NCBI GenBank assembly: GCA_965224245.1 | Contig: OZ245046.1 | Coordinates: 256,001 to 320,000, forward strand | Source of the DNA: Candidatus Eiseniibacteriota bacterium | GTDB lineage: Bacteria > Eisenbacteria > RBG-16-71-46 > CAZAMP01 | Reading direction: 5' to 3' | DNA length: 64,000 nucleotides | Shown here: positions 2,696 through 63,932 of the stretch, in pieces | Layout of the letters: each line of letters opens with the position of its first letter | Numbering within the stretch: the first letter of the stretch is position 1 | The notes under the pieces: generated by a model | Database searches by the model: none | Told to the model about the DNA's origin: nothing | What the model saw: the letters and a program-made list of their open reading frames with translations, nothing else | Translations under genes and position numbers: made by a program

Positions 2696-3274
2696 TCAAC
2701 CCTCCTTCGCCTCGGCGAGCTTCGCGCGCTCGGGGATCTCATCCGGAGGCAGCCCCGAGCTCGCTTCGAGGCGCCCGCTGAAGTTGAAGAACGAGATCAG
2801 TGCCGTGGCCTCCCAGATCGTCTTCTCGCTCCACCCGCTCGCCTTCAGCTCGGCGACGTCGTCGGCGCCCACGAGGCTCGGCGTCTCGGTCAGCTTGCTC
2901 GCGTATCGGAGAAGGGCTCGCGTGTCGGGCTCCAGCTGGTATTCGGGCCAGGTCGTCGCGAACTCGGGCCCCATGTGCTCATCCCGCGTGAGGCGGCGAA
3001 CTGCCGCCGTGTGAAGCCCGAGTCAGGGGGCGCCGCCCACCTTTCCGTTGACCACCGTCGCCAGCATCTCTCGCTGGAGTCGGCTCATGCCGGACGACTT
3101 GCCGAGGTGCAGGTAGTTGTAGAGCATGCCGGCCGGTCCGGCGACTCGGAGATCGACCGCGAGGATCTGGAAGATCCCCGGAACGACGCCGCCATACTGG
3201 CCCCTGACCCAGCGAAAGAAGAGTGTTCGCAGCCCGCGTGCGCGATCGGGCGCGATCGTCCGGATGTTCGCCAT
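2696..3274 (-). CDS. AhpD/carboxymuconolactone decarboxylase-like protein, probable selenoprotein (Sec TGA at 3023-3025)
   Basis: ORFs 3023-3283 and 2696-2974 are in one frame and join through TGA: SRLQREMLATVVNGKVGGAP-U-LGLH..RALLRYASKLTETP..DDVAELKASGWSEKTIWEATALISFFNFSGRL; hairpin follows the TGA. Confidence 0.85.
2992..3008 (-). promoter_or_regulatory. putative bacterial SECIS hairpin of the AhpD-like gene
   Basis: GGCGGC-AGTTC-GCCGCC beginning 14 nt after the in-frame TGA; G at loop position 2. Confidence 0.7.
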
Positions 3275-3890
3275 CGTCACCATCCCTTCTCGAGAGAGCT
3301 CGTGCGCGCGACATCAGGCATCGCGTTCGGGTCGAGTTCGAGCGCTGGCCGCGCTCGAGGACGACCGGGCCGTCACGGCAGCCGTGACGCAAAGGAGGCG
3401 AGAGGGTGCTGGATGCGCTGGCAGCCGTCCAGGAGAACCCACCCCGTCATCGCCGTGGGGAGAGGAGCGGAGAGAGGATGTGGGCGGTCGAGAGCGGACC
3501 CCGCTCGCATCACCGGGTGGCTCGGGACGACCGATCCCGCGGCCGACGTTTCGAGCCAGGTTGGTCACCAGAGGCCTCTCCAGCCCCGAGCGGCGCCCGG
3601 TGAGCTCATCGGTGGGTACCGGCGTGGGCACGGATATCGCCGTATCTCCGGCCACCCGGATCCGAACCGTACGATTGTTCAACACCGAAAGGGCCCCGAC
3701 GGCGTACAATTGTGCGTGGCCACATACAGCGACCTCGCTGGATGTCCTCGGTCTATTCAGATTCTTGCATGATGTGAGAGTCAAAAAACGTGACCAGGAT
3801 CGCCCTCCCGCACGCCCGTGCGAGGCTGGTCCGTTCGACACCGCGGTAAGGATGCGCGATGCCGAAAATCTGCACCGCTGGAGGACTCAC

Positions 3891-6800
3891 GTGAGAATCA
3901 CGAGTCGAACTCTGAGCGTTGCGGGCGCGGAGGCATTTGCGGCGGGTCTGTTCGTGATGCTCGTCGCCGCGCTTCCCGCGAACGCGGCCGTCGATGACGT
4001 GGAGCTGGACGGCAACGGATACGACGAGGTCGATCCGGCCGACGACTGGGACGTCATCACGAGCACTGGCGGAAGCTCCGTCATCGCCACACCCGTGATC
4101 CCGGACCCGGCGGGGAACAACATCTTCACCACCGGCGGCTCCAAGGACATCGAGGATGTCTCGTCGTGGGCCTGGACCGAAGGAAGCGTTCCCGACAAGG
4201 ACGAGATCACCAACGCGATGGCCGCGCTCTACACCGGCAACAAGCTCTACTTCGCCGCGGATCGCTTCGCGAACAACGGCGATGCGTCTCTCGGGTTCTG
4301 GCTGTTCCAGAATCCGATCGGTCTCGAGCCGGATGGATCGTTCAGCGGTGTGCACGCCGTCGGGGACATCCTCATCCTGGCCGACTTCGTCCAGGGCGGT
4401 GCGACCACGATCGTGCCCCGCGTGTTCCGGTGGGTAGGCGACGGCTCGGGCTCGGAAGGGAACATCGACGAGATCATCGTGGGCGTCGAGACGGCGAGCG
4501 CCATCACGAACGCGCTCGTCGAGTGCGCACCGTGGCCGTACGAGCCCAAGTTCCCCGAGGAGTGTCCTCCCGGATGTGACGACCCGAACTGCCACCCGCC
4601 GAGCTCGTTCTTCGAGGGCGGTCTCGACCTCGGATTGCTCGGCGTGAACCCCTGCTTCAGCTCCTTCCTGGTCGAGACCCGCTCTTCACAGTCGGTGTCG
4701 GCTCAGCTCAAGGACTTCGTCCTCGGCGACTTCACCACGAACCCGACCTGCGAGATCACCGGTGCGCCCGAACTCTGCGAGGGTGAGACGGCCGAGTACT
4801 GCTCGAGCTGCGATCTTTCCATCGGCACGTACCTGTGGGAGGTCGTGAGCGGTGACGCGACGATCGTGGGCGCCGATGACGGATCCTGCGTCGACGTCCA
4901 GGCGGGCACGACGAACTTCACGCTGAAGCTCAGCGTGGTCGGGGTCGACGGCTGCCCCGGCGAGTTCTTCAAGGAGGTCGTGGTCAATCCGCTCCCGGTC
5001 TGCGACATCGGAGGACCGGACGAGGTCTGCGAGGACTCCGAGAACGAGCACTGTGCATCGTGCGGAACCGGCGACTTCGACTACGCGTGGAGCATCGCGG
5101 GAGACGGCGAGATCACGACGCCCCTCGACGGCTCGTGCGTCACGGTCCTGGCGGGTGCCGACGCGATCCTCACCGGCGTGTCCTCCTACACGCTCACGCT
5201 CACCGTCACCTCGGCGGATGGGTGCGTGGACACGTTCGAGAAGACGGTGAACGTCAACCCCAACCCCGTCGTGACCGTCGCGGACAACGAGGCGTGCGAT
5301 GGCGACACGGCCGAGCTGTGCGCCGAGGTGGCGCTCGGGGAGTATCCCTTCACGTTCTCGTGGACGGGCCCCGGTGGCTTCGTCTCGGCCGACTCGTGCA
5401 TCACGGTCGGCGTGGAGGGGACGTACTCGGTCACCGTCACCGACGCCAACGGCTGCGAGGGCTCCGGCTCCGGTGACCTCACGATCCACGACAACCCCGT
5501 GGTCACGGTCGACGACAACGAAGCATGCGACGGCGACACGGCCGAGCTGTGTGCGGAGGTGTCCGTGGGTCAGTATCCCTTCTCGTTCGCGTGGACGGGC
5601 CCCGGTGGGTTCGTCTCGGCCGACTCGTGCATCACGGTCGGCGTGGAGGGAACGTACTCGGTCACCGTCACCGACGCCAACGGCTGCGAGGGCTCCGGCT
5701 CCGGGGACCTCACGATCCACGACAACCCCGTGGTCACGGTGGACGACAACGAGGCGTGCGACGGCGACACGGCCGAGCTGTGTGCCGGGGTATCGGTGGG
5801 TCAGTACCCGTTCTCGTTCGCGTGGACGGGCCCCGGTGGATTCGTCTCGGCCGACTCGTGCATCACGGTCGGCGTGGAGGGGACGTACTCGGTCACCGTC
5901 ACCGATGCCAACGGCTGCGAAGGCACCGGCTCAGGGGATCTCACGATCCACGACAACCCTGTGGTGACCGTCGACGATCGGGATGCCTGCGAGGGCTTCA
6001 GTGCCGAGCTGTGTGCCGAGGTGTCGGTGGGCCAGTATCCGTTCACGTTCGCGTGGACGGGCCCCGGTGGGTTCGTCTCGGCCGACTCGTGCATCACGGT
6101 CGGCGTCGCGGGCACCTACGAGGTCACGGTGACCGACGACAACGGATGCGTCGGGACGGGATCCGGTGATCTGACGATCAACCCGGGTCTGGTGATCAAG
6201 ATCGACGACCAGGAAGCGTGTGACGGCGATACGGCCGAGCTCTGCGCCCAGGTCAACGGTGGCGAGTATCCGTTCTCGTTCTCGTGGACGGGCCCCGGTG
6301 GGTTCGTCTCGGCCGACTCGTGCATCACGGTCGGCGTCGACGGGACGTACTCGGTCACCGTGGTCGACGTGAACGGGTGCGAGGGCTCCGGCTCCGGAGA
6401 CCTCACGGTTCACGACAACCCGGTGGTCACGGTGGACGACGACGAGGCGTGCGACGGTGACACGGCCGAGCTGTGCGCCGTGGTATCCGGCGGCCAGTAT
6501 CCGTTCACGTTCTCGTGGACGGGCCCCGGTGGGTTCGTCTCGGCCGACTCGTGCATCACCGTCGGCGTGGAGGGTGAGTACTCCGTCATGGTGACGGACG
6601 ACAACGGCTGCGAAGGCACCGGCTCCGGGGATCTCACGATCCACGACAACCCCGTGGTGACCGTCGATGATCGGGAGGCCTGCGAGGGCTTCACGGCCGA
6701 GTTGTGTGCCGAGGTGTCGGTGGGCCAGTATCCGTTCACGTTCGCGTGGACCGGCCCCGGTGGGTTCGTCTCGGCCGACTCGTGCATCACGGTCGGCGAC

Positions 6801-8729
6801 GCGGGCACCTACGAGGTCACGGTGACCGACGACAACGGATGCGTCGGGACGGGATCCGGTGATCTGACGATCAACCCGGGTCTGGTGATCAAGATCGACG
6901 ACCAGGAAGCGTGTGACGGCGATACAGCCGAGCTCTGCGCCCAGGTCAACGGTGGCGAGTATCCGTTCTCGTTCTCGTGGACGGGCCCCGGTGGGTTCGT
7001 CTCGGCCGACTCGTGCATCACGGTCGGCGTCGACGGGACGTACTCGGTCACCGTGGTCGACGTGAACGGGTGCGAGGGCTCCGGCTCCGGAGACCTCACG
7101 GTTCACGACAACCCGGTGGTCACGGTGGACGACGACGAGGCGTGCGACGGTGACACGGCCGAGCTGTGCGCCGTGGTATCCGGCGGCCAGTATCCGTTCA
7201 CGTTCTCGTGGACGGGCCCCGGTGGGTTCGTCTCGGCCGACTCGTGCATCGCGGTCGGCGTCGGGGGCACGTACGAGGTCACGGTGACCGACGACAACGG
7301 GTGCGAAGGCTCCGGGTCGGGTGACGCGACCATCCACGACAACCCGACGTGCTCGCTCGATCCCCCCGATCCGCTGCCCGAGTGCGGCTCCACGGGGAAC
7401 ACGCTGAGCGGTCCGGACGGGATGACCACGTACCTGTGGGAGCTCACGTCCGCTCCCGCCGGCTGGATGATCACCGGCGGTGCCGACCAGCAGACCGTCA
7501 CGTACACGGCCGGCGATGAAGGGGATGCGACGTTCCAGCTGACCATCACCGACGGCAACGGCTGCGTGGGCATGTGTGACGTCATGTTCTCGTGCACGCC
7601 GCCGCCTCCGGTCGACAAGTTCTGCACGTTCACGCAGGGCTTCTACGGCAACCCGGGTGGTCGCTTCAACGGGATCCCCACGCTGGATCTGATCAAGGCG
7701 TTGATCACGCCGGGGAACCCCCTCGTGGTCGGCGTGCCCGGCATGGCCCGTTCGCTCGAAGGCCTGCTCGGTGGCGGTGGTCGCTCCGTGACCTGGGAGG
7801 GAGGAGCGTCCGGCGGATACGTGTTCGAGGACTGCCCGGAGGAGCCCAACGGGGATCCCGGCGTCGCCGAACACTGCGTGATCGAGCGTCTGCCGGCCGG
7901 TGGTCCCGCGGAGGAGCTTCCGCTGGGGCTCGGTGACGTGACCGTCGATCCCTCGGACTGCGACACCGATCCGCCGCTGCCGATGCGGAACGGCAAGTAT
8001 CGGAACGTGCTGCTCGGTCAGACGATCACGCTGTCGCTGAACGTCCGGGTCGACGAGAACCTGAGCGATCTCGGGGTCTGCCGCGTGATGAAGACCGCGT
8101 CGGTGAACCCGGGACCGGACGGATGCTACGGGACCGAAGACGACCTGCTGCATCATCCGGGCGGAGACACGACGAGCGTGTACATTCCCGAGTCGGTCCT
8201 CCAGAAGCTGGACGACGACCCGGGTCTCGACACGACCGTCGGGGGCATTCTCGAGCTCGCGAACTGGGCGCTCGCCGGCCTGCTGGATCCGGATACGGAC
8301 CCGAGTCCGAGCGAGATCAGCGACGCGGCGGCGGCCATCAACGAAGGCTTCGACGAGTGCCGCTTCCTGATCTACTGCGGTGAAGGCGATGCCTCCGATC
8401 CAATGCTGGTGACGTCGCCGACCCGCGAGGACCACGTCCCGATCCCGTTCTCGCTGGGGGGCAACTACCCGAACCCGGTCCGCAGTGCCACGACGATTCA
8501 CTTCACGCTCGCGGAGCGGAGTGAGATCCGACTCGCCGTCTACGACGTCTCGGGTCGGCAGGTCGCCCTCCTCCTGGAGGGGTCGCTGAGGGCCGGAAGC
8601 CACCGTGCGGTGTGGGACATGGTCGATCGAGGGGACTTCTCGGCCGGAATCTACTTCTACCGGCTCGATGCTGCCGGTGCCAGCGGCTCGGCGTTCACCG
8701 AGACCCGCAGGATGCTGGTCCTGAGGTAA
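3891..8729 (+). CDS. large secreted Cys-rich repeat protein (SprB/Ig-like repeats) with C-terminal FlgD/T9SS-like sorting domain
   Basis: GGAGGA then GTG at 3891; signal peptide ending ALPANA; 77-aa repeats with YSVTVTDANGC; C-terminus NYPNPV..IHFTL..YDVSGRQV..GIYFYRL. Confidence 0.9.
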   Translation: MRITSRTLSVAGAEAFAAGLFVMLVAALPANAAVDDVELDGNGYDEVDPADDWDVITSTGGSSVIATPVIPDPAGNNIFTTGGSKDIEDVSSWAWTEGSVPDKDEITNAMAALYTGNKLYFAADRFANNGDASLGFWLFQNPIGLEPDGSFSGVHAVGDILILADFVQGGATTIVPRVFRWVGDGSGSEGNIDEIIVGVETASAITNALVECAPWPYEPKFPEECPPGCDDPNCHPPSSFFEGGLDLGLLGVNPCFSSFLVETRSSQSVSAQLKDFVLGDFTTNPTCEITGAPELCEGETAEYCSSCDLSIGTYLWEVVSGDATIVGADDGSCVDVQAGTTNFTLKLSVVGVDGCPGEFFKEVVVNPLPVCDIGGPDEVCEDSENEHCASCGTGDFDYAWSIAGDGEITTPLDGSCVTVLAGADAILTGVSSYTLTLTVTSADGCVDTFEKTVNVNPNPVVTVADNEACDGDTAELCAEVALGEYPFTFSWTGPGGFVSADSCITVGVEGTYSVTVTDANGCEGSGSGDLTIHDNPVVTVDDNEACDGDTAELCAEVSVGQYPFSFAWTGPGGFVSADSCITVGVEGTYSVTVTDANGCEGSGSGDLTIHDNPVVTVDDNEACDGDTAELCAGVSVGQYPFSFAWTGPGGFVSADSCITVGVEGTYSVTVTDANGCEGTGSGDLTIHDNPVVTVDDRDACEGFSAELCAEVSVGQYPFTFAWTGPGGFVSADSCITVGVAGTYEVTVTDDNGCVGTGSGDLTINPGLVIKIDDQEACDGDTAELCAQVNGGEYPFSFSWTGPGGFVSADSCITVGVDGTYSVTVVDVNGCEGSGSGDLTVHDNPVVTVDDDEACDGDTAELCAVVSGGQYPFTFSWTGPGGFVSADSCITVGVEGEYSVMVTDDNGCEGTGSGDLTIHDNPVVTVDDREACEGFTAELCAEVSVGQYPFTFAWTGPGGFVSADSCITVGDAGTYEVTVTDDNGCVGTGSGDLTINPGLVIKIDDQEACDGDTAELCAQVNGGEYPFSFSWTGPGGFVSADSCITVGVDGTYSVTVVDVNGCEGSGSGDLTVHDNPVVTVDDDEACDGDTAELCAVVSGGQYPFTFSWTGPGGFVSADSCIAVGVGGTYEVTVTDDNGCEGSGSGDATIHDNPTCSLDPPDPLPECGSTGNTLSGPDGMTTYLWELTSAPAGWMITGGADQQTVTYTAGDEGDATFQLTITDGNGCVGMCDVMFSCTPPPPVDKFCTFTQGFYGNPGGRFNGIPTLDLIKALITPGNPLVVGVPGMARSLEGLLGGGGRSVTWEGGASGGYVFEDCPEEPNGDPGVAEHCVIERLPAGGPAEELPLGLGDVTVDPSDCDTDPPLPMRNGKYRNVLLGQTITLSLNVRVDENLSDLGVCRVMKTASVNPGPDGCYGTEDDLLHHPGGDTTSVYIPESVLQKLDDDPGLDTTVGGILELANWALAGLLDPDTDPSPSEISDAAAAINEGFDECRFLIYCGEGDASDPMLVTSPTREDHVPIPFSLGGNYPNPVRSATTIHFTLAERSEIRLAVYDVSGRQVALLLEGSLRAGSHRAVWDMVDRGDFSAGIYFYRLDAAGASGSAFTETRRMLVLR
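5256..7334 (+). repeat. intragenic tandem repeat, 9 x 231 bp (77 aa), with a 693-bp higher-order duplication
   Basis: Each unit has 4 Cys and WTGPGGFVSADSCI; identical 96-aa antisense ORFs at 6116-6406 and 6809-7099 are 693 bp apart. Confidence 0.95.
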
Positions 8730-8744
8730 CCAAGCTCCACTCTG

Positions 8745-13150: not shown

Positions 13151-13182
13151 CCGCAGGTTTGGACCGCTTCGTCCGACGTCGC

Positions 13183-50741: not shown

Positions 50742-51413
50742 ATGCACAAACGGTCATCGGGATGGCGTAGGTGGAGTCGATCGGCGACGGTCGCGTCGCT
50801 GGTCACCCTCGCGCTCGATCGCGTGTCCGCCGGAGCCGAGGTGGGCGCGGCTACTCCGCCGGCGCCCGGGAGCCCGCGTCCGGACGCCGCGGCCCACGGC
50901 GCCTCGCCGGCGACGAGCGGCGCGCATGGCTCTTCACTCTACTCGCTCGTTGGAACCGTGCTGCCGATGCTGGGCGGTATCGCCCTCGCGGTGAAGACCG
51001 ACGGCGGCGTGGCCAACACGGTCGCGTTCGCCGGCCTGTTCTGGGGCGGCGCCATCGTTGGTCCCTCGCTCGGCTACGTACACGGCGGAGCCACGCGCCG
51101 GGGGCTCGAGGGGCTCGCTTTGCGCGCCGGAGCCTTTGCGGTGGCATGGGCGCTGGCGCCCACGCACGACTTCGACGATGGGATCGTGCCCAACCCGTCC
51201 TTCAATCTCGCGACCGGCGAGGGCGGCGGCGATGTGGGCATCTGGATCCTCGCGACGGCGGGAATCCTCGTATCCGGCATCCACGACATCATTCGCGTCG
51301 ACGGGACCGTGGGCGCCCGGTCCGACCGAGTGAGCTCCTTGCACGCGACGGTGCTGCCGGACGCCGGCGGTAGTGGATGCCGCCTGGGCGTCGAGTGGCG
51401 GATCTCCTTCTAG
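50742..51413 (+). CDS. hypothetical membrane protein
   Basis: RBS AAGGAG; hydrophobic segments, VGPSLGY motif, C-terminal GVEWRISF. Confidence 0.65.
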   Translation: MHKRSSGWRRWSRSATVASLVTLALDRVSAGAEVGAATPPAPGSPRPDAAAHGASPATSGAHGSSLYSLVGTVLPMLGGIALAVKTDGGVANTVAFAGLFWGGAIVGPSLGYVHGGATRRGLEGLALRAGAFAVAWALAPTHDFDDGIVPNPSFNLATGEGGGDVGIWILATAGILVSGIHDIIRVDGTVGARSDRVSSLHATVLPDAGGSGCRLGVEWRISF

Positions 51414-51528: not shown

Positions 51529-52320
51529 ATGACGCAAGACTCGCGTTCTCCCCGGTCCCCCAACGTCGATACCGAGGAGCTTCGCCGGGCCATTCGACAG
51601 GAGTACCAGGAGGTGGCCGACGATCCCGGAAAGGGGTTCCACTTCCACACCGGTCGCGCACTGATCGCGATCGTCGGCTACGAGGATGAGTGGCTCTCCG
51701 GAATCCCCGAATCGGCCATCGAGTCGTTCGCGGGCACCGGCAACCCCTTTGCCTTGGGCGAGCCCGCTGCGGGGGAGAGGGTCGTCGACGTCGGATCGGG
51801 AGGTGGGATCGACTCGCTCATCGCGGCTCGCATGGTGGGCCCGACGGGAGCCGTGGTCGGGATCGACATGACCCCGGAGATGCTCCGGAAGGCGCGCGCC
51901 GCCGCCGAGGAATCGGGGCTGGGCAACGTCGAGTTCCGTGACGCGTACATGGAGGCGCTGCCGGTGCCCGATGGGTGGGCCGACGTCGTGATCTCCAACG
52001 GTGTGCTGAACCTGACGCCCGACAAGGACACCGCCCTCGGTGAGATGTTCCGGGTGCTGCGCCCGGGAGGCCGGCTCCAGATCGCCGACATCCTGGTGGA
52101 TCGTCCGGTTCCGGAGGGCGCGAAGCGGGACATCGACCTCTGGACCGGGTGAATCGCCGGTGCTCTGCTGGAAGCAGAGCTGGAAGCCACCGTCCTCGCC
52201 GCGGGGTTCCGCGACTTCGAGATCACGTGGAAAGCCGAGGTGTTCGCCGGCGCGCCCCAGGCGTCGAGCGCCAGCGCGTTCGGCACCATGGGGATCAACT
52301 TCCGGGCGCGCAAGCCCTGA
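51529..52320 (+). CDS. ArsM-like SAM-dependent methyltransferase, probable selenoprotein (Sec TGA at 52150-52152)
   Basis: VVDVGSGGG, GIDMTPEML, DVVISNGVLNL; frame continues DLWTG-U-IAGAL..AAGFRDFEI..INFRARKP to a stop at 52318-52320; matches the ArsM W-x-G-C-(I/V)-A-G-A-L motif. Confidence 0.88.
52162..52180 (+). promoter_or_regulatory. putative bacterial SECIS hairpin of the ArsM-like gene
   Basis: GCTCTGC-TGGAA-GCAGAGC beginning 9 nt after the in-frame TGA. Confidence 0.75.
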
Positions 52321-52639
52321 GCCCGGCGATACCCGGTCGCCTCGTCGGCGGCGCGCGGTTGTGATTCCACGTCACCCGGCCCGGCTCTCCGCGTTCGGGA
52401 CGGTGGCGTGCGTTGCGTCGGCGAAACCTCGCGGCGGTCCACGACTTTGATGCCGATGCATCATGGCGTCCCCACGGCCCCGCCCCGAGAATGCTCGGCT
52501 GGACTCCATCATCGTCGAAGACCGATCGCGACCGTTGTGGCCCGGATCCGCGGTCCCCGTGCGCCGGAGTCCCCTGCGCAGGAGCCCGCGCAGACAGCTC
52601 GTCGGCTGGCCACGCTCCAACCCGTTCGGAGGCTTCGTC

Positions 52640-53455
52640 ATGTTGCCAGACATCACCCGCATCCTAGCCAGTGCCGTCGTCGTGGCGGCCATCATCCCGA
52701 CGACGGCCGCAGGGGTCGAACGAACGATCTGGACCAGCCCGCTCGGCGCCATCGTGGGGGACTCCCGCATGGCCGTCGCGCCGGGCATTCCGCTCTCGAG
52801 CATCCGGGTGACGTCGACGACCGCGGGCGATCTGCAGTGGGTGTGCTTCGGGCTGACCGTTCCCGAGGAGGCCCAGATCGTCGGCGTGCGGCTGTGCTAC
52901 GAGCTGGCCGATTCGAGGAGCTTCATCTCCCAGACGCGGATCACGCTGCTCACGACGCCGGACTTCGACCTCGCCGTCTACGACGACCCAACCGACCACA
53001 CCGATCCGGGACCCACGTGCTACTACTCGACTGCCGCGCCGGTGTTCGTCGAGGGGACCTGCACGCTGGAGCTGCGCCTGAACTTCGCGTCTCCGGACCA
53101 CTGGATCGACATCGGCGCGATCGGCATCGTGATCGACGACCCCACGATCGCCGCGCCCGACGTCGCGCTCTCCGAGAGCGGGATGCGGCTCGAGCAGAAC
53201 GTTCCGAACCCGTTCAATCCGCAGACGTCGATCCGCTACGCCGTCACCGCGGAGGACTGGATTCGCGTGGACATCCACGACGTTCAGGGGCGCCTCGTCC
53301 GCACGCTGGTCGATGACCTGCAGCAGCCCGCGCAGTACCACGTATCGTGGGACGGCACGGATGATGGTGGGAGTCCCCTGGCATCCGGTACGTACTACTA
53401 CACGGTACGGATCGGGAACGAGCAGGCCTCGCGCAAGATGGTGATGCTGAAGTAG
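52640..53455 (+). CDS. small secreted protein with C-terminal FlgD/T9SS-like sorting domain
   Basis: Signal peptide; LEQNVPNPFNPQTSIRY..WDGTDDGG..SGTYYY..RKMVMLK. Confidence 0.85.
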   Translation: MLPDITRILASAVVVAAIIPTTAAGVERTIWTSPLGAIVGDSRMAVAPGIPLSSIRVTSTTAGDLQWVCFGLTVPEEAQIVGVRLCYELADSRSFISQTRITLLTTPDFDLAVYDDPTDHTDPGPTCYYSTAAPVFVEGTCTLELRLNFASPDHWIDIGAIGIVIDDPTIAAPDVALSESGMRLEQNVPNPFNPQTSIRYAVTAEDWIRVDIHDVQGRLVRTLVDDLQQPAQYHVSWDGTDDGGSPLASGTYYYTVRIGNEQASRKMVMLK

Positions 53456-53521: not shown

Positions 53522-53570
53522 TTCCGATTCACGCCTCCGCGACGGGAGCGTCGGTCCTCCGTGGTTCGCG

Positions 53571-55511
53571 TCAGCGAATGATCACGAGGCGTCCCGTGTG
53601 AACCTCGGACGGCGTCCGAAGCCTGTAGAAGTAAATGCCGCCCGGCACGGCGTTGCCGCTCTCGTCACGGCCGTCCCACTCGGCGTGATGCAGGCCCGCG
53701 GCCGTGAAGCCGCTGGCCAGCGAGCGGATCTCCCGTCCGTTCACGTCGAAGACGCCCAGCTCGACCGAGGCGCCGGTCTCCAGCCAGAATCCGATGTGCG
53801 TGTCGGTGTGGAACGGGTTCGGGTCCACGTTCACGGCGGTGGACCGTGCGAGGCGTGATCCGTCGCAGCCCGCCGTGCAGCTGTTGCCATCCTCGTCACA
53901 GGTCTGCTCGTTCGCCCCGGCATCGTACGTGAGGCCGGCACCCGAGACGCCGGTCACCGTGAACGCCCAGCAGTAGCTGCTCGCATTGCGGACGCGATCC
54001 GAGTCCAGCGTCACCTGGCCGCTTCCGTCGGTCACGCCGCTCTCGGTGCTGGACGTGGTTCCGGCGTAGGTACCCGTGACCGTTGCGTTCGCCTGCGGTC
54101 CATGGGTCGACGTGTGGACGGAGACCGTCGTGCGCGCTCGCGTCCACGGGCCCTGCTGCACGATCGAGAGCGACACCGCGCCCACGTGAACCGCGTCCGC
54201 CGGCGGGCAGGCATCGGTCGACGTCGTCGCCGTGTTCGAGTAGGCGGACGTTCCGGCGCAGTTGGACGCCGACACCCGGTACGAGTAGCTCGTGTCGCAG
54301 GTGAGACCGGAGTCGTGGTAGCTCGTCGTGTTCGCGCCGACCGTCGCGATCTGGGTGAAGCCGCCGCCGGAGTCGCGTTCGATGGCGAACTGGTCCTCGT
54401 CGGAGCTGGCGTCGGTCCAGCTCAGGTCGATCTCGGTGTCACTGGCGGCCGTCGCGGAGAGACCGGTCGGTGCGGTGGGCGGACCCGTCGCCTCACAGCC
54501 GCTCAGCCAGCCCGGCGTGGCGGCGGCGGACCAGCAGTGCATGCGACTGACCTGCTGACTGGTGAACGTGTCGTAGCACGAGTCAGGGGCGTAGCCCATG
54601 TAGTTCTCGGGCTGCGTGGCTCCCCACGCCGTTCCCTGACAGTCGCTGCCCCCAGGCGGCGAGCAGTTGTAGTTCGTCGGGGTCGGCGGCGTGTCCGAGC
54701 AGAAGTCCCCGCGCACGTCACCCTCGACACCGGACGCAAACTCGTAGCAGCTGCCGCACGACGTGACCTCGCTGACCCCGTGGTGCGTGTGCCAGAGACC
54801 GAGGCAGTGTCCCATCTCGTGCGCGGCCGTCTTCTGGCCCGCTCCCCAGTACGCCGAGTTCATCCACAGGCCACCCCGGTTCGTCAGCGCGTCCGGATCC
54901 CAGGGGAACGTGCCGATACCCAGGAGAACGCCGAACGGGCTCGAGTCCTGGCAGGAAATGAAGATGTTGCAGCTGTTCGCGGGATCTTCCGCGTACTGAT
55001 CCTTCATGGCCAGGATGTCCGCGTACCACGTCGAGTTGTACGGGTGATACTTGGTGATGCAGTGGAAGTCGTTGTCGTTGTGAAAGCGGGTGGCCACGAG
55101 ATTGAAGGAGATGCCGGTGCCCGCGTAGTCCGCGGCGAGCTGAGCCATCCCGGCGTCGACCTCCGCCTGACCGACGCCGCTCGGGCCCTGGCCCGACGAG
55201 CTGTTCATGACGTGCACGATGACGTTGACGGTCTTGGCGGAGGTCGACGTTCCGTCGCGTGTCGCCGGAACGTCGCAGGCGCCTTCGGTGGGGCAGCCAC
55301 TCCCCCGAAACGTGTCGTCGGAGATGCCGACGCGCTCGTAATATAGGTCCGTGGTCGGGCACAGGAAGGGGACGGTCTGTCCCGTCTCCGGATCCACGGC
55401 GGGTTGCTCGGGAATTGCGGTTGCCGATCCCGCCCCCACGAGACAGGCGACAACCCCGACGATCCAGCGACCGAGTCGAAGAGACGAACGCTGACCGGAT
55501 CTGCTACTCAT
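53571..55511 (-). CDS. M43 (pappalysin/ulilysin-like) zinc metalloprotease with FN3 domain and C-terminal sorting domain
   Basis: HEMGHCLGLWHT, GDFCSDTPP, ENYMGY, FTSQQVSRM; FN3 (APTGLSAT..LSWTD..YSYRVSA); PNPF..WDGRD..GIYFYRL. Confidence 0.92.
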   Translation of the reverse strand: MSSRSGQRSSLRLGRWIVGVVACLVGAGSATAIPEQPAVDPETGQTVPFLCPTTDLYYERVGISDDTFRGSGCPTEGACDVPATRDGTSTSAKTVNVIVHVMNSSSGQGPSGVGQAEVDAGMAQLAADYAGTGISFNLVATRFHNDNDFHCITKYHPYNSTWYADILAMKDQYAEDPANSCNIFISCQDSSPFGVLLGIGTFPWDPDALTNRGGLWMNSAYWGAGQKTAAHEMGHCLGLWHTHHGVSEVTSCGSCYEFASGVEGDVRGDFCSDTPPTPTNYNCSPPGGSDCQGTAWGATQPENYMGYAPDSCYDTFTSQQVSRMHCWSAAATPGWLSGCEATGPPTAPTGLSATAASDTEIDLSWTDASSDEDQFAIERDSGGGFTQIATVGANTTSYHDSGLTCDTSYSYRVSASNCAGTSAYSNTATTSTDACPPADAVHVGAVSLSIVQQGPWTRARTTVSVHTSTHGPQANATVTGTYAGTTSSTESGVTDGSGQVTLDSDRVRNASSYCWAFTVTGVSGAGLTYDAGANEQTCDEDGNSCTAGCDGSRLARSTAVNVDPNPFHTDTHIGFWLETGASVELGVFDVNGREIRSLASGFTAAGLHHAEWDGRDESGNAVPGGIYFYRLRTPSEVHTGRLVIIR

Positions 55512-57279: not shown

Positions 57280-59133
57280 GTGACCGTGGTAGCCGTCGCC
57301 GCCGTGGCCATGATCATGCGGGTTCTGGAGGGTGATGCCGGCGCGGACCTGCCGCCGATCGATCCCGAGGTCATCCCCGCCGACGGGTACGTCGGCTCCG
57401 ACGCCTGCCGCTCCTGCCACGAGCGCGAGCACACGGCCTGGCATGCCTCCTACCACCGGTCGATGACCCAGCTCGCCAGCCCCGCGTCGGTTCTGGCTCC
57501 ATTCGACGGCACCGAGCTCGCACTGGAGGGCGTGACGTGGCGGCTGAGCCGTCGCGGTGACACGTTCTGGGTGAACGGTCGCGAGCGACATCCGGAGACC
57601 GGCGAGATCGTCCAGCTCGAACGGCGCATCGTCATGACGACCGGTTCGCACAACTACCAGATGTACTGGATGGAGTCCGCCGGATCGGGCATGGCGCCGT
57701 TTCCACTGGTGTACCTCCTGTACGACCGCGTGTGGATTCCGCGCAAGTCGCGCTTTCTCGCACCTCCCGCCGAGCGGACGCCGATCGAGACCGGCCGGTG
57801 GAGCGTTCACTGCATCAAGTGCCACGCGACGCACGGTCAGCCCCGCCACGGTCCGCTCGAGGAGACCCGCGTGGCCGAGCTCGGGATCAGCTGCGAGATG
57901 TGCCACGGCCCGGGCCAGGAGCACGTGCGACGGCACGGCTCGCTGTTCCGGCGACTCGGGCTCTCCCGAGACGGGGGGCCGGACTCGACGATCGCGAACC
58001 CCGAACGTCTACCACATGATCGATCCGCCGAGGTCTGCGGCCAGTGTCACAGCATCGAGGTGTTCCTGACCCGCGAGGATGCGTTCGACTGGCAACACGA
58101 GGGGAGCCGATACCGGCCCGGGGATCGGCTCGAGGAGTTCCAGACGATCGTGTCCGGCCGTCTCGAGGAGAACCCGCCGGAGGTCCGCGAGTACCTCGAC
58201 CAGCATCCGATCTTTCGGCTTCAGAACTGCTTCTGGTCCGACGGCGTGCTCCGCGTGACGGGCCGCGAGCTCCACGGTCTGAAGGAGACACCCTGCTACC
58301 AGCGCGGTGAGCTGAGCTGCATCTCGTGTCATCGGCTGCACCGCGCCGACCGGGATGATCGATCACTGGAGGAGTGGGCCGACGATCAGCTGCGCCGGGA
58401 CATGCGCGGGAACGAGGCCTGCACGCAGTGCCACTCGCGGTACCGCGATCCCGGCGTGCTCGCCGCTCACACTCACCATCCACTGGACTCGTCGGGCAGC
58501 GCGTGCCAGAACTGCCACATGCCGTACACGACGTGGGGTCTGCTCCGCGCGATTCGGAGCCACACCGTGGAGTCCCCGAGCGTGCGGACGAGTCTCGAGA
58601 CCGGCCGGCCGAACGCCTGCAACCAGTGTCATCTGGATCGCACGATGCGGTGGGCGGCCGAGACGCTGCACGACTGGTACGGCACCGAGATCCCCGAGAT
58701 GTCCGACGACGAAGGAACCGTGGCCGCCTCGATCCTGTGGGCGCTGTCCGGTGATGCGGTCCAGCGTGCGCTCATGGCATGGAGCATGGGCTGGGAGCCG
58801 GCGCGCGAGGTCTCCGGCGCGCAGTGGATGGTGCCGTTTCTCTGCACGCTCCTCGTGGATCCGTACGATGCGGTTCGCTTCAGCGCCCAGCGCTCGCTCC
58901 GGGGCTACCCCGAGTATCGCGGTCTGACCGCCGACTCGCTGCGCGCGGCGTCGAAGGAGCGACAGTCCGCGATGATGAGCGCCGTTCTCACCGACTGGAG
59001 CAACGGGCTACCGGCGAGCGCGGGCCGGGTCGGCTCACAGCTTCTACTCCTGGCCGACGGTCGGATGAACCTGGAGAAGCTCCGGAGCCTGGCCGCGTTG
59101 CGAAACGACCGCGACCTCGTCCTCTTCGAGTGA
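57280..59133 (+). CDS. membrane-anchored octaheme c-type cytochrome
   Basis: Eight CxxCH motifs: CRSCH, CIKCH, CEMCH, CGQCH, CISCH, CTQCH, CQNCH, CNQCH; N-terminal hydrophobic anchor; start uncertain. Confidence 0.9.
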   Translation: MTVVAVAAVAMIMRVLEGDAGADLPPIDPEVIPADGYVGSDACRSCHEREHTAWHASYHRSMTQLASPASVLAPFDGTELALEGVTWRLSRRGDTFWVNGRERHPETGEIVQLERRIVMTTGSHNYQMYWMESAGSGMAPFPLVYLLYDRVWIPRKSRFLAPPAERTPIETGRWSVHCIKCHATHGQPRHGPLEETRVAELGISCEMCHGPGQEHVRRHGSLFRRLGLSRDGGPDSTIANPERLPHDRSAEVCGQCHSIEVFLTREDAFDWQHEGSRYRPGDRLEEFQTIVSGRLEENPPEVREYLDQHPIFRLQNCFWSDGVLRVTGRELHGLKETPCYQRGELSCISCHRLHRADRDDRSLEEWADDQLRRDMRGNEACTQCHSRYRDPGVLAAHTHHPLDSSGSACQNCHMPYTTWGLLRAIRSHTVESPSVRTSLETGRPNACNQCHLDRTMRWAAETLHDWYGTEIPEMSDDEGTVAASILWALSGDAVQRALMAWSMGWEPAREVSGAQWMVPFLCTLLVDPYDAVRFSAQRSLRGYPEYRGLTADSLRAASKERQSAMMSAVLTDWSNGLPASAGRVGSQLLLLADGRMNLEKLRSLAALRNDRDLVLFE

Positions 59134-59341
59134 CGCCCGATCGGTGGGTGACGCGCGGTGGGTGGGCGAGCCGGTCCGACGACCCGAGCGGGTTGCCCGG
59201 ATCCGGCGCTGGCCCTAGAATCGGTCCCAGGGTCGATTCTCCGCCGGATTGCCTCGTCGACAGCCGTTCGCGCCGCGTGTCGCGGCAGTGGACCATCACG
59301 ACGACGCCCGGGCGTCGTCACGTCCTGACGTGGGAGGTCAC

Positions 59342-60946
59342 GTGTTGGATTCACCGTGGATCGGGAGTACTCGGCTGGTCGCGTACGCATGGCTGACCGT
59401 CACGTGGTGTATCGGTCCCGTCGCTCACGCCGTTCCATGTGAGGCCCCCGACAACGGTGCGGGCACGGTCGATCTTCCGGTCGCGGGCTGCGGCTACCTC
59501 TCACCGGACGACGTGCATCTCGTCGTCGATGGCCTGCCGGCGGACACCGAGATCCTGGCGAAGACCGAGTGCGCCAAGTTCTTCAACGTCGAGGTCATGC
59601 CCGGGGGATCGCTCGAGGGGGAGATCGCGAGCTTCGACGCATACCTGTTCCTGGACATGACCGGGACCGGCGAGCTGACGGGCTTCGACAAGTTCCTCGC
59701 CGTACCGATCCACTGCGAGGTGCACACCGGGCCGCGCACGCCCGGCGACCCCGTCCAGCGTTTTCCCGGCGACGTCCACATCCTCGAGGGGGAGATCTTC
59801 GGCGATCCCGACTTCGAGCTTCTCTCCATCCATGCCGGAACCGATTTCGGCATGCCGAGCCCCGGCGAGACGACGCTGACCCGTCTCCCCGACGGCAACT
59901 GGAACGTCGACAGCTTCTTCGACATCGCCTACCGCATCGAGTTCGTGGGCGCGCGCGGCAGCATGCTCGACGGCCTCTCCGGCATCACGACCGCGTCGTC
60001 GGCGATGCAAGGTGGCGAGCCGGCGACCGTCGACGAACCGTGCATGCAGCCGGACGACGGAACGGGGACCGTGGTGCTGCCCCCCCGAGACTGCAACTAC
60101 CTCGCGCCGCACGAGATCGCGCTGTCGATCGACGGGCTTCCCCCGGAGACCTCGATATGGGTCCATCCGACCTGCAACCGCTTCATCGACGTCGTCGCCG
60201 AGCCCGGGGGGTCGCTCGGCGGAGAGATCCAGATGTTCGACGCGTCGCTCGCGCTGATGATGCAGGGCACCGGTGAGCTGGAGGGCTTCTCGAGGAGCCT
60301 GATCGTGCCGGTCGCCTGCGAGACGAACACCGGTCCCCGCGACCCGAGCAAGCCGGTTCAGCTGTTCGCGAGCGAGCTGATGCAGATGCAAGGGATGATC
60401 ACCGGTGATCCGGACTTCGAGCTTCTCCAGATCGTGGCGGGCACGGACGCCGGGCTTCCCAGCCCCGGTGCCACCCAGCTCACGCAGTCGCCGACGGGCG
60501 GCGACTGGACCGTCGACAGCTTCTTCGACATCGCCTATCGCATCGACTTCGTGGGTGCACCCGGAAGCGTGCTCGAGGACCTGTCGGGCTCGACGGTCGG
60601 AGCGGTTCGCATGGGCACCGGTGACGAGACCGCCGTCGCGACCGCGGAGATCGGGCCGCCGATCCCGGGCGCCCGTCTGGAAGCGGCTCGACCGAACCCG
60701 TTCAGTCCGACGACGAGCCTTCCCTTCGTCCTCGATCGGGCCGGTCTCGTCGAGATCCGCATCTACGACGTCGCCGGTCGCCGGGTGCGGAGCCTCGTGA
60801 ACGAGGACCTCGACGCCGGACGACACGAGGTGAGCTGGAACGGGCGGGACGCCGGGGGCAATCTCGTCGGGCTCGGGACGTACTTCTACGAGCTGCGTGT
60901 CGACGGCGGCGTCATCGCCGCACGCCGGGCCGTGATGCTGCAGTGA
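59342..60946 (+). CDS. secreted protein with two tandem VDSFFDI domains and C-terminal sorting domain
   Basis: RBS GGAGG + GTG; two 201-aa units starting at 59435 and 60038; RPNPF..YDVAGRRVR..GTYFYEL. Confidence 0.85.
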   Translation: MLDSPWIGSTRLVAYAWLTVTWCIGPVAHAVPCEAPDNGAGTVDLPVAGCGYLSPDDVHLVVDGLPADTEILAKTECAKFFNVEVMPGGSLEGEIASFDAYLFLDMTGTGELTGFDKFLAVPIHCEVHTGPRTPGDPVQRFPGDVHILEGEIFGDPDFELLSIHAGTDFGMPSPGETTLTRLPDGNWNVDSFFDIAYRIEFVGARGSMLDGLSGITTASSAMQGGEPATVDEPCMQPDDGTGTVVLPPRDCNYLAPHEIALSIDGLPPETSIWVHPTCNRFIDVVAEPGGSLGGEIQMFDASLALMMQGTGELEGFSRSLIVPVACETNTGPRDPSKPVQLFASELMQMQGMITGDPDFELLQIVAGTDAGLPSPGATQLTQSPTGGDWTVDSFFDIAYRIDFVGAPGSVLEDLSGSTVGAVRMGTGDETAVATAEIGPPIPGARLEAARPNPFSPTTSLPFVLDRAGLVEIRIYDVAGRRVRSLVNEDLDAGRHEVSWNGRDAGGNLVGLGTYFYELRVDGGVIAARRAVMLQ

Positions 60947-61023
60947 CGTGGACGTGACACACACGCTTTGACGCGGGTGAGAACGGGTCGGCGGGGAGGC
61001 GTCGTATCGCCCCCCGGGCAGGT

Positions 61024-61536
61024 TCAGCCGTGGTCTTGACCCAGCGTCTTGCGAAGTCGGGCCAGTGCTCGCCTGAGTCGTGTGAGCGCCCCCTTCCCGA
61101 GCGCCCGTTCGAGCTCGGCCGTCGTCTCCTGAATCGCGTGAAGGCCTGCCTCGAGTCCCTTCAGGCCTTCTGGCGTGTAGCGGACGATCCGGGCCCGTGA
61201 GTCCAGGGGATCGACGTCCACACGGACGATCCCCCTCGTTACGAGCTCGCCGACGATCGATCCGATGTACTGCTTGGAGACCCCGACGCGGCGAGCGAGC
61301 TCGCCCATTCGTGTGCCCGGCAGGTCCAGACTGCGGAGTGTGGCCACGTACACCGCCGGCAACGCGTCGATCCATCCCTGCTCGATGAGGTGCCGGCGGA
61401 TCCGGGCCTCGAACGCCTCGAACGTCGCGAGGAGCTCGCGTCCGAGGTTGTCTTGCCGGAGACGGGTCAGCTCGTCCGGCAGCTCGAGTGTCGATGCGCC
61501 GTGCGGCGCGTTCCCGACGGGTCGTTTCCTGTTCAC
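61024..61536 (-). CDS. MarR family transcriptional regulator
   Basis: GTRMGELARRVGVSKQYIGSIVGELVTRGIV..DPLDSRARIVRYT; GTG start at 61536 is uncertain. Confidence 0.9.
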   Translation of the reverse strand: MNRKRPVGNAPHGASTLELPDELTRLRQDNLGRELLATFEAFEARIRRHLIEQGWIDALPAVYVATLRSLDLPGTRMGELARRVGVSKQYIGSIVGELVTRGIVRVDVDPLDSRARIVRYTPEGLKGLEAGLHAIQETTAELERALGKGALTRLRRALARLRKTLGQDHG

Positions 61537-61537
61537 G

Positions 61538-61592
61538 TTGACACGATAGTACGCTGATCGTACCATGTCGATAGTACAGTGATCGTACTATC
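61538..61592 (+). promoter_or_regulatory. sigma70 promoter overlapped by two tandem palindromic operators
   Basis: TTGACA (61538-43) N17 TACCAT (61561-66); GATAGTAC-N7-GTACCATG (61545-67) and GATAGTAC-N7-GTACTATC (61570-92). Confidence 0.85.
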
Positions 61593-61602
61593 TGGAGGTG
61601 AG

Positions 61603-62946
61603 ATGTTCGGGATCGACCGCGCCCTCCGGCGTGAACCGCGACGCGGGGCGTCCGCCTGGTTTCGGTTCGCCGCGTTCGCCGTGCTGCTCCTTCCGCCGGT
61701 GGCGTGCTCCTCGCCGGTCCCGCGCGGCGCGGAGACCCATCAGCTGGAGGCAGGTGGACGATCGCGTCGTTACCACGTCGTGGGTGCGCGGGTCCGTGCC
61801 GGAGTACCCGACGGTGGGCGGCCCATCATCATCATGCTTCACGGATTCCGGCAAACACCAAGGGACCTGCAGGAGCTGGCCGATCTGGAGCGCGTCCACG
61901 GCGCCGGCGAGGCGATTCTCGTGTACCCCGAGGGTGTCGAGCGGAGCTGGAACGATGGGGACGACAGCAAGCCCGCCACCACGAAGGGAGTGGATGATCT
62001 GGCATTCCTCACGGCGCTGCTCGACGATCTCGGATCGCGCCAGTCGATCGACGAGGATCGGATCTACGCCGTTGGGTTCTCGAACGGTGGGTTCTTCCTG
62101 CTACGAAACGTCTGCATGCTCTCCGAACGACTCGCCGCGATCGCCGTGGTTGCCGCCGGTGCGTACCCTCGCATGGACACGTACTGCGGCGGATACCGCA
62201 CGGTTGCCACGATGGTGGTCCTCGGTACCGAGGACCCCCTCACGCGATGGGACGGGTGGAACGGTGACCCGCGGCGCCCGTCGGCCACCGGCTACGTCCT
62301 CTCGCGTCTGAACGCGTGCGCGCCCGCGCCGGACACCTTGGACGTTCCGGACATGGCCGACGACGGCACGCGTGTTCGGATCCTCCGCTACACCGGCTGC
62401 CGTGACGAATCCCAGATCGTGTTTGCTCAAGTCGACGGTGGCGGACACGCCTGGCCGGGCGGGCGCGCGTACCTGCCTGCGGCCTTGATCGGGGCCACGT
62501 CTCGCGACTGGGATGCGAGTACGGCCATTGCGGACTTCTTCGAGCAGCATCGGCGTCGTGTTCCGAGCGCGTCACTGTCGGACACGTTGCGGGACGCGCT
62601 CGCGGAGGGGGCCGAGCTTCGGGCCCGGCTCACGACCTGGCTGGAGACACCTGGCCGCGATCACGTGCGCGTGGAATGGGAGATCAACCGGCTCGGCTAC
62701 TCGCTCCTTCGCGAGCAGCGAGCGTCGGATGCCGTCGACGTGTTTCGTCTGGGCAGAGAGCTCTTCCCCGGGTCGTTCAACGTGCACGACAGCCTCGGAG
62801 AAGCACTGGCCGTCGCGGGACGAGCCGAAGAAGCGATCGCCAGCTACCGGCGATCGCTCGAGATCGAACCCGGTAACACGAATGCGGCCGAGCAGATCGC
62901 TCGCCTGCAAGAGATCGGGTCCACGCCGTCCTCGGACGGCCCATGA
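61603..62946 (+). CDS. LpqP/PHB depolymerase-like esterase lipoprotein with C-terminal TPR
   Basis: IIMLHG, LVYPEG..WN, VDDLAFL, GFSNGG, GGGHAWPG; INRLGY..NVHDSLGEA TPR; RBS GGAGGT. Confidence 0.9.
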   Translation: MFGIDRALRREPRRGASAWFRFAAFAVLLLPPVACSSPVPRGAETHQLEAGGRSRRYHVVGARVRAGVPDGGRPIIIMLHGFRQTPRDLQELADLERVHGAGEAILVYPEGVERSWNDGDDSKPATTKGVDDLAFLTALLDDLGSRQSIDEDRIYAVGFSNGGFFLLRNVCMLSERLAAIAVVAAGAYPRMDTYCGGYRTVATMVVLGTEDPLTRWDGWNGDPRRPSATGYVLSRLNACAPAPDTLDVPDMADDGTRVRILRYTGCRDESQIVFAQVDGGGHAWPGGRAYLPAALIGATSRDWDASTAIADFFEQHRRRVPSASLSDTLRDALAEGAELRARLTTWLETPGRDHVRVEWEINRLGYSLLREQRASDAVDVFRLGRELFPGSFNVHDSLGEALAVAGRAEEAIASYRRSLEIEPGNTNAAEQIARLQEIGSTPSSDGP

Positions 62947-62959
62947 ACGGGTGGGATCG

Positions 62960-63325
62960 ATGCGCATGAAGCAGCTCGTGGAGACGTGGTTCGCGTCATG
63001 GGAGGCGGGAGACGTGCAGGAGATCCCGGTCGATCCGGACTTCCGGCACGTGAGCCCCTACGGAACGATCGAGGGGAGGGACGCGTACCTCTCGCTCGTC
63101 GAGGCCAACCTCGACAGCTTCCTGGGGCATCGGTTCGAGATCCGCGATGCGTTGTATGAGTCCGACCGGGCCTGCGTCCGGTACACCACGTCCAAGGGGG
63201 ACTGGTCGATGGAAGTGGCCGAGTGGTTCTACCTCGGCCACGACCGGATCGGCGAGATCGTGTCCTACTACAACGTGGGACGCGCCAGCTACGCGGAATC
63301 GTTCGACCGGCCCCCCGATCGGTGA
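62960..63325 (+). CDS. SnoaL/NTF2-like protein
   Basis: KQLVETWFASWEAGD..DFRHVSPYGTIEGRDAYL..IGEIVSYY. Confidence 0.8.
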   Translation: MRMKQLVETWFASWEAGDVQEIPVDPDFRHVSPYGTIEGRDAYLSLVEANLDSFLGHRFEIRDALYESDRACVRYTTSKGDWSMEVAEWFYLGHDRIGEIVSYYNVGRASYAESFDRPPDR

Positions 63326-63377
63326 GACGGCCGATGCTCGTCGTCGGGGCGGCCGGACGCGATGCCGTCGCGGGACC

Positions 63378-63932
63378 CTATCGACGTCGAAGCGACGACT
63401 CGGCGTCGATCAGCAATGCCTTTAACGTCGCAAAGCTGTCCGCGTCCCCGAGCGAGTGCTCGGTGAGATTGTAGGTGGCCACCGGCCGGTTCTCCCCATC
63501 CAGCACCAGCACGTCGCGGTATTCGATCGGCCAGACCGACCACACGTCCTCCTCGGGAACGTCCTGGAGCCACGGGAGCGTGCGCCCGTTGCACATCTCC
63601 TCGTTCCCCGACTCGAGACCGATTCCATTGATCCCCAGAATGTTGATCTCGTCGTGCCCCTCGGACGCGAGCTCCGCCTGCATCGTGTTCAGGTAGCCGA
63701 ACTGGCTACGACAGTAGCCTCACGTGGCGTGCCCGAAGTACCAGGCCGACACGCGGCCCTCGAACGTGCGCGGAGACACGGACTCGTCGTGAGTGGCCGA
63801 GTTGGGGTTCACGTCGGTCAGCGAGAAGTCGGAGACGACCTCGGCGCCGCCGGTGTCCCCGGTAGGGTCGGCAGGCGCCTTCTGCTCGTCCGAACACCCG
63901 AGCGTCGCGACGAGCGCGAGCGTCGAGATCAC
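63378..63932 (-). CDS. thioredoxin-fold (AhpC/TSA/redoxin-like) lipoprotein, probable selenoprotein with UxxC (Sec TGA at 63720-63722)
   Basis: ORFs 63720-63932 and 63378-63683 join in frame: DFSLTDVNPNS..WYFGHAT-U-GYCRSQFGYLNTMQAEL..ILGIN..LPWLQD; lipobox TLGC; frame stays open to the window end, so the true start may lie upstream. Confidence 0.88.
63693..63709 (-). promoter_or_regulatory. putative bacterial SECIS hairpin of the redoxin gene
   Basis: GTAGCC-AGTTC-GGCTAC beginning 10 nt after the in-frame TGA. Confidence 0.75.

Follow-up and report, generated by a model that had tools for sequence, protein, structure and literature searches.

Three genes with an in-frame UGA in a 64-kb stretch of a Candidatus Eiseniibacteriota genome as probable members of known selenoprotein families

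The stretch of Candidatus Eiseniibacteriota DNA analysed here, called the window below (64,000 nucleotides, G000:C1:256001-320000, from a 6.94-Mb genome in 27 contigs with 68.6% G+C and an estimated completeness of 97.4%), contains three genes that are each interrupted by one in-frame TGA, and it raises the question of whether these genes are broken or whether the codon is read as selenocysteine (Sec). They encode an AhpD-like protein (gene A), an ArsM-like methyltransferase (gene B) and a thioredoxin-fold lipoprotein (gene C). An earlier interpretation of the same DNA, the sequence-only reading, had proposed that all three are selenoprotein genes; the ORF list and the read-through translations place every interruption where it had put them, and read-through of the TGA gives three continuous proteins. 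That family-like sequence is kept past the TGA, as it had also claimed, agrees with the NCBIfam profile similarity, which spans all three TGAs, and the coding signal likewise runs on past each of them. Taken together with the evidence described below, these findings make it very probable that A, B and C are intact and that their UGAs are decoded as Sec by the standard bacterial pathway. The genes, their predicted Sec codons and their predicted selenocysteine insertion sequence (SECIS) hairpins are as follows.

2696..3283, minus strand: gene A, AhpD-like "peroxidase-related enzyme", 195 amino acids, ATG at 3283, stop TGA at 2696-2698.
3023..3025, minus strand: predicted Sec codon (UGA) of gene A; in solved AhpD-like proteins the second Cys of the CxxC(xxxH) motif occupies this position.
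2992..3008, minus strand: predicted SECIS hairpin of gene A, with a G+C stem of 6 bp that begins 17 nt past the U of UGA and the loop AGUUC.
51529..52320, plus strand: gene B, ArsM-like methyltransferase dependent on S-adenosylmethionine (SAM), 263 amino acids from the ATG at 51529, true stop TGA at 52318-52320.
52150..52152, plus strand: predicted Sec codon of gene B; in solved ArsM (alignment to 5evj and 4fr0) this position is occupied by the last Cys that binds As(III), in the motif G-C-[VIL]-[AS]-G-A.
52162..52180, plus strand: predicted SECIS hairpin of gene B, with a stem of 7-8 bp that begins 12 nt past the U of UGA and the loop (U)GGA(A).
63378..64000 and on past the window end, minus strand: gene C, exported thioredoxin-fold TUGYCR selenoprotein (predicted) with a lipobox Cys, stop at 63378-63380.
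63720..63722, minus strand: predicted Sec codon of gene C, at the first position of the U-x-x-C redox motif and at the N-terminus of helix 72-90.
63693..63709, minus strand: predicted SECIS hairpin of gene C, with a stem of 6 bp that begins 13 nt past the U of UGA and the loop AGUUY.

All three genes come out split or cut short from standard gene callers. On the minus strand, these would report fragments of 86 amino acids (3023..3283) and 92 amino acids (2696..2974) for gene A, and 63720..63932 and 63378..63683 for gene C; for gene B the caller frame is 51373/51529..52152, where the GTG at 51373 is a possible alternative upstream start, and the frame then continues for 55 further codons to the true stop. 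The protein collection holds a 101-amino-acid C-terminal piece of C (P0005) and a 207-amino-acid call for B that ends at the Sec codon (P0146). When the TGA is written as U, the contexts read ...VNGKVGGAP-U-LGLHTAAV... in A, ...DIDLWTG-U-IAGALLE... in B and ...WYFGHAT-U-GYCRSQF... in C, and the C-terminus of B (...FRARKP) is as in its homologues. The frame of C is open past the window end, and the GTG at 63932 that had been taken for its start gives way to a likely ATG ~19 nt outside the window, which is accompanied by a basic, hydrophobic, Cys-ended signal peptide (L021). The spacing is 48 kb between A and B and 11.6 kb between B and C, and the three genes are not in operons. A codon-usage scan found no fourth credible case of an in-frame TGA within the window. 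A crude filter for read-through frames based on GC3 was abandoned, as gene A escaped it and antisense frames passed, and false positives persisted in a codon log-odds scan, among them the genuine stop codon with which an NqrF-like gene ends ahead of an ApbE-like gene, and a LapA/LapB-like pair.

Decoding of the three UGAs as Sec would require a dedicated machinery, and the search of the genome that the sequence-only reading had proposed found all of it above the curated cut-offs: selA (516 bits, cut-off 268), selB (324 bits, or 353 with its C-terminal piece, cut-off 242), selD (378 bits), which has an in-frame TGA of its own in the context SGAG-U-ASK, and tRNA-Sec with the anticodon tca (71.9 bits, cut-off 47). 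These genes all lie outside the window, as had been stated, and Rfam and tRNA scans of the window gave no matches. In the pathway that they would compose, SelD would make selenophosphate, SelA would convert Ser-tRNA(Sec) to Sec-tRNA(Sec), and SelB would deliver the latter to the in-frame UGA on binding the SECIS hairpin 12-17 nt downstream, the apical loop of which would present a G at position 1 or 2, here in (A)GUU(C) or GG(A). The same findings bear on the possibility that the UGA is recoded as Trp, Cys or Gly, by a variant code or near-cognate suppression, rather than as Sec. Some metagenome gene callers do print W at the site, and the inserted residue is predicted from sequence. However, TGA ends 1335 of the 1932 long, strongly coding frames (69%) and is therefore the main stop codon, not a reassigned one; the Sec machinery is complete; the site is always the position of a redox or ligand Cys; and the hairpins downstream have the bacterial SECIS spacing and the loop G. 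We consider recoding to another amino acid highly improbable.

The interrupting codon is conserved in each gene. A homologue of C occurs in 17 of 41 same-class genomes (own included), with TGA at the same codon in all 17, and the corresponding column in 9 full-length database homologues contains 6 Cys, 2 W, where a caller reads TGA as Trp, and 1 Ser. For gene B, TGA occupies the Sec column in five loci (its own and those of G009, G026, G012 and G027), and TGC or TGT stands there in the Cys-form ArsM loci of relatives, 20 of 20. Among the 119 homologues closest to B in the database, the column is Cys in 113, W in 3, Y in 1, R in 1 and a gap in 1. Gene A shares the position of its TGA with orthologues in G014 (72% identity) and in metagenome-assembled genomes (MAGs) of a Rubrobacter and of a member of the Thermomicrobiaceae. 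Among metagenome loci, 80 were fetched (L092-L171) and the motif could be placed in 73, of which 71 have TGA; the site is 7 Cys, 8 W, 1 L and 1 gap in 17 protein-database homologues. The Cys forms of A, B and C thus all carry Cys at the column of the TGA, which answers the question of Cys alignment that the sequence-only reading had raised.

Had the TGAs arisen by nonsense mutation or sequencing error, the genes would be pseudogenes or artefacts, and the frames are indeed formally broken, with truncated products made by the collection's gene caller. This explanation is opposed by the recurrence of TGA at the same codon in 17/17 (C), five (B) and 71/73 (A) loci, by the coding signal past each TGA, by the covariation of the hairpins, and by re-assembled contigs that agree with the window. 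The last point concerns Logan contigs of public runs, which were compared with the window at the TGAs of B and C and showed zero differences over them, in three runs for B and two for C; the read-level look for TGC, TGT or TGG at the Sec codons that had been suggested has thus been realized at the level of assembly for these two genes, where TGA is kept, and gene A was not covered. An origin by mutation or error is, on this evidence, extremely improbable.

The reality of the SECIS elements was examined through conservation and covariation. In gene C, 96.1% of the 102 cells of the helix (alignment columns 14-19/25-30) are paired and five of the six pairs have changed on both sides (27 cells), while slid controls are paired in 28-54%; the observed pairing or covariation score was reached by none of 500 shuffles. 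The helix of gene A is paired in 99.0% of 402 cells (67 distinct sequences), and again its pairing or covariation score was reached by 0/500 shuffles. Its pair 19-33 is GC in 59, GU in 4, AU in 2, UA in 2 and unpaired in none, the remaining changes in the helix being G-C to G-U. The evidence for the hairpin of gene B consists of five sequences: the same hairpin is found in G009 and G026, in G012 one of its G-C pairs has been exchanged for C-G in a compensatory swap, and in G027 another 6-bp hairpin, in a shifted register, stands at the same distance from the UGA. The hairpin was absent at that place from the six Cys forms of B examined. The sequence-only reading had described a compact hairpin directly 3' of each TGA. 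Hairpins do lie 12-17 nt downstream of all three, but for gene C the directly adjoining fold is not the conserved one: a hairpin placed immediately after its UGA by minimum-energy folding was paired in 71.6% of cells, a value reached by 119 of 500 shuffles, and was rejected.

Profiles and structures treat each read-through product as a single protein. Gene A passes the cut-off of NCBIfam TIGR01926 (89 bits, cut-off 81.8) and matches AhpD-like chains in the PDB, namely 3c1l (E 7.8e-22), 6k40 and 2pfx. The product of gene C scores 221 bits against NF053656 (cut-off 100), covering profile positions 1-146 of 146 with the exact T-U-G-Y-C-R motif. Its AlphaFold model (pLDDT 88.9, pTM 0.82) is one compact thioredoxin fold in which U71 lies just ahead of the first long helix (72-90), and the best PDB folds for the model are ResA, DsbE/CcmG-type and lipoprotein thioredoxins, with target-normalised TM values of 0.69-0.78. 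That each locus instead consists of two small genes flanking a true stop, as the ATG located 12-16 codons past the TGA in A and C and used by callers might suggest, is practically inconceivable when single-domain profiles and solved structures align straight over the TGA, the model of C places U at a helix N-terminus within one fold, and gene B is without any downstream start.

Some of our observations weigh against the assignment of A, B and C as selenoprotein genes or lessen the force of the evidence for it. Support for Sec incorporation is at the level of sequence, and the family assignments are uneven: gene A has no Pfam match and is not detected in the genome by the PF02627 profile; gene B falls under the curated cut-off of every NCBIfam model (235 bits against 263 for NF008823, 245 bits against 510 for NF041537); and the sole Pfam matches of gene C, SCO1-SenC at 17.7 bits and Redoxin at 16.8 bits, are sub-cut-off. 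In two of the 73 metagenome copies of A the site is TTA (Leu), one base off TGA, which means that the residue is not strictly indispensable or that these copies are inactive. The SECIS of A shows little covariation, with only one pair changed on both sides, a count reached by 142 of 500 shuffles. This limited covariation can be attributed to the conservation of the encoded peptide TAAVRRL itself, and the signal that the element may have been kept by compensatory change is weak but consistent. The folding energies of the hairpins (-11.6, -11.7 and -8.1 kcal/mol for A, B and C) are unremarkable at 68.6% G+C, given that among 286 out-of-frame control TGAs, evaluated with perfect-stem hairpins, ~4% reach the energy of A and B and 19% that of C (at or below -8). 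Energy was discarded as a discriminator, with 9% of the control TGAs reaching -10 kcal/mol. As the energies are not beyond chance, the reality of the SECIS elements rests on conservation and covariation. Finally, the re-assembled runs all come from one study and probably include the source sample, so that they are not independent of the window.

If A, B and C are selenoprotein genes, their biochemical roles can be considered from what surrounds the Sec, and gene B departs from what its family name implies. The designation "ArsM-like" given by the sequence-only reading stands by homology only. The Pfam matches of B are to the generic methyltransferase domains Methyltransf_31, _25 and _11 (77-108 bits, Methyltransf_31 highest at 108 bits), and the SAM-binding Rossmann motif is present as VVDVGSGGG, aligned to the motif of ArsM. 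What does not carry over is metalloid binding. The metalloid-binding Cys of the red-alga ArsM are C72, C174 and C224, and their positions were taken here from the alignment to 5evj and 4fr0. In this alignment, the Cys of "GCGNP" is Thr in B, the Cys of "SNCV" is Gly and the N-terminal CC cluster is deleted; the last metalloid-binding Cys is the only one with a counterpart in B, as Sec, and the protein is without Cys. Every one of the 5 Sec forms has the Thr and Gly replacements, as have 118-119 of the 119 closest homologues; the Cys-form ArsM of relatives, in contrast, retain these Cys in 20 of 20 cases. The score of B is below the ArsM cut-off, and so is that of every close homologue examined, including the Cys-form relatives P0148 and P0164 (236-237 bits against the NF008823 cut-off of 263); the other nearest NCBIfam models, which match through the methyltransferase parts of NF047649 and NF041536, are also under cut-off.

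Because B lacks two Cys used by bona fide ArsM, arsenite methylation is doubtful, and we consider the label "arsenite methyltransferase" unsupported for its subfamily, the Cys forms of which are named only "methyltransferase domain-containing protein" by NCBI. Some close Cys-form relatives (P0148, P0161, P0179 and others) carry, fused at the C-terminus, a TusA-like domain (PF01206) in which G-C-A-x-G-P is conserved, and these fusions hint that the subfamily acts on sulfur or selenium species. Most likely, the single Sec of B would hold a substrate, probably not arsenite, on its selenol for methyl transfer.

Gene A presents a comparable situation. Its protein is without any Cys, so that Sec is the only chalcogen residue; U and the His of the motif are present, and the first Cys of CxxC is Gly (G-A-P-U), which is shared by its orthologues. 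This Cys-free "GAPU" form is common in metagenomes. Single-Cys relatives carrying ...KPCLSLH share the form without the first Cys, and more distant, paralog-type genes in relatives have CxxU or CxxC. Without a partner Cys, the intramolecular disulfide-type bond and the dithiol cycle of AhpD are impossible in A, and the protein would most likely cycle via a selenenic acid or a selenenyl-sulfide with an external thiol.

One possibility, which we put forward tentatively and consider on balance doubtful, is that A and B, rather than being simple Cys-to-Sec swaps, represent two "lone-chalcogen" subfamilies that have gone unrecognised, where Sec (or a single Cys) provides the sole sulfur or selenium side chain available for redox or ligand chemistry. 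If this were true, B would be a SAM methyltransferase unable to chelate As(III) in the manner of ArsM, and the TusA-like fusions of its relatives would suggest methylation of sulfur or selenium species on the selenol. Gene A would then perform monoselenol peroxidase/reductase chemistry apart from the dithiol AhpD cycle.

Gene C, by comparison with known folds, appears to encode a ResA/TlpA-like oxidoreductase that has a U-x-x-C centre, is exported and is probably lipid-anchored. A separate entry of the protein collection, P0011, is a tandem TUGYCR-type protein in which domain 1 is without both redox residues (S...S) and domain 2 ends right after ...YYFGAAT, where a TGA would fall.

The three genes belong to a larger predicted selenoproteome. 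A read-through scan, a within-genome search for Sec/Cys paralogues and family searches together gave at least 13 selenoprotein genes in the genome: A, B, C, SelD, a SelW-like gene (YCVQ-U), a deiodinase-like gene, an Omp28-related gene, two ResA/TlpA-like genes, a gene for a thioredoxin-TPR protein and three UshA-like genes (C-x-U). Besides A, C and SelD, no other scanned gene among them passes a curated cut-off in NCBIfam; in Pfam, the SelW-like gene scores above its cut-off. The third UshA-like gene, which stood outside the NCBIfam scan, was placed by its paralogues and motif. In each of the 13 genes the UGA is followed, at a distance of 12-28 nt, by a stem-loop whose loop has G as its first or second nucleotide, and the loop AGUUC occurs in three of the genes. 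The stem-loop is at or below -8 kcal/mol in 11/13 genes, as against 19% of the 286 control TGAs, a comparison that is partly circular since some candidates were first picked from a hairpin-filtered list.

The density of selenoprotein genes is ~1 per 530 kb genome-wide and 1 per 21 kb in the window, which is ~25 times the average. Three genes in 64 kb are therefore a local cluster and not a measure of the genome. The sequence-only reading had taken this density as the sign of a selenoprotein-rich organism. Moderately to fairly rich the organism is, with reported maxima for bacterial selenoproteomes of 57 and 63 (PMC13188914), but the extrapolation from the window was overstated and most of the redox proteome is ordinary: TGA is found in three of the 14 Redoxin-family matches of the genome and in none of the six matches to the CMD family. 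The accompanying expectation of a mis-annotated redox proteome is accordingly borne out for the three window genes and for at least 10 further genes, since ordinary gene finders cut Sec genes at UGA, but not for the 11/14 Redoxin and 6/6 CMD matches that are without TGA.

Five other loci with in-frame TGAs were left out of the count of 13. A BamB/PQQ-repeat-like gene (L087, G000:C1:2464458), a gene for a T9SS-tailed protein (L088, 3620613 of the same contig), a gene without family match (L089, 2478027) and L090 (G000:C1:2224909) show coding signal on both sides of the TGA and a downstream hairpin; a family scan of L087-L089 matched no selenoprotein family. In L091 (G000:C1:991415), the TGA interrupts the gene of an LVIVD-type repeat protein whose repeat units continue on either side, and its column in ~130 paralogous repeat alignments is mostly V, L or I, not Cys. 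This TGA would be a nonsense mutation or an error, or else stand for something that is not a redox Sec.

Elsewhere in the window, a ~1600-amino-acid secreted protein is encoded at 3891-8729 on the plus strand, with about ten near-identical, Cys-rich repeats of ~77 amino acids and a C-terminal FlgD-Ig/T9SS-type domain. A C-terminal domain of this type is also found in at least three further window proteins (52463-53455, plus strand; 53571-55397, minus strand; 59342-60946, plus strand). Downstream of gene A on the minus strand, positions 1-2111 contain a regulatory cluster, in which an ECF sigma factor (PF07638, 204 bits) is accompanied by a protein with a STAS domain and by a frame resembling a Ser/Thr kinase.

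How the three loci compare with known systems can be considered at two levels, the first of which is decoding. In E. coli fdhF-type decoding by SelB, the SECIS is a hairpin within the gene at a short fixed distance past the UGA, with a G in the apical loop (often GU), and the rules for bacterial SECIS elements reportedly go back to Zhang and Gladyshev in 2005 (cited in PMC13188914). The hairpins of A, B and C resemble the fdhF element in lying inside the coding region shortly after the UGA and in having the apical-loop G, and differ from it in their short (6-8 bp), perfect stems, to which SelB binding is predicted.

The second level is that of the protein families. AhpD-like proteins (CxxU; "AhpD-like 1/2") and arsenite S-adenosylmethyltransferases have figured among the listed selenoproteins from the ocean metagenome surveys onwards (Zhang and Gladyshev, PMC2398784), where the arsenite methyltransferase family was represented by 8 GOS sequences. 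A 2026 review counts 119 selenoprotein families or subfamilies; among the entries of its table relevant here, ArsM (NF008823/PRK11873, UxxG) stands under "experimentally verified", three ArsM-type double selenoproteins are also listed, and the four AhpD-type entries are all CxxU (PMC13188914). Gene A agrees with the AhpD-like selenoproteins in its fold family, in the position of Sec at the second Cys of CxxC-xxx-H, in the retained His and in the downstream SECIS, but differs from the CxxU forms in being without the first Cys and any other Cys, and hence without a dithiol or selenol-thiol couple. Gene B shares with the ArsM selenoproteins the SAM-methyltransferase fold and U-I-A-G at the last metalloid-binding Cys; in contrast with the double selenoproteins NF041537, NF041536 and NF047649, it is a single-domain protein with one Sec. 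In the literature searched, supplementary tables not covered, we found no description of the Cys-less motif of A or of the loss of ligand Cys in B, and no paper that mentions "TUGYCR", which is documented only as a curated NCBIfam model. Gene C is a plain member of NF053656 with nothing material to distinguish it from ResA/TlpA/DsbE-type UxxC oxidoreductases, and like lipoprotein thioredoxins it has a signal peptide with a conserved Cys. Selenium use is already on record for all three families, to which A, B and C add members. The result is thus mostly confirmatory, extending the use of Sec to at least 13 genes of a 6.9-Mb bacterium with high G+C (68.6%), and the leads that it offers are the Cys-free "GAPU" form of AhpD-like proteins and a Cys-free ArsM-like methyltransferase that probably does not act on arsenite.

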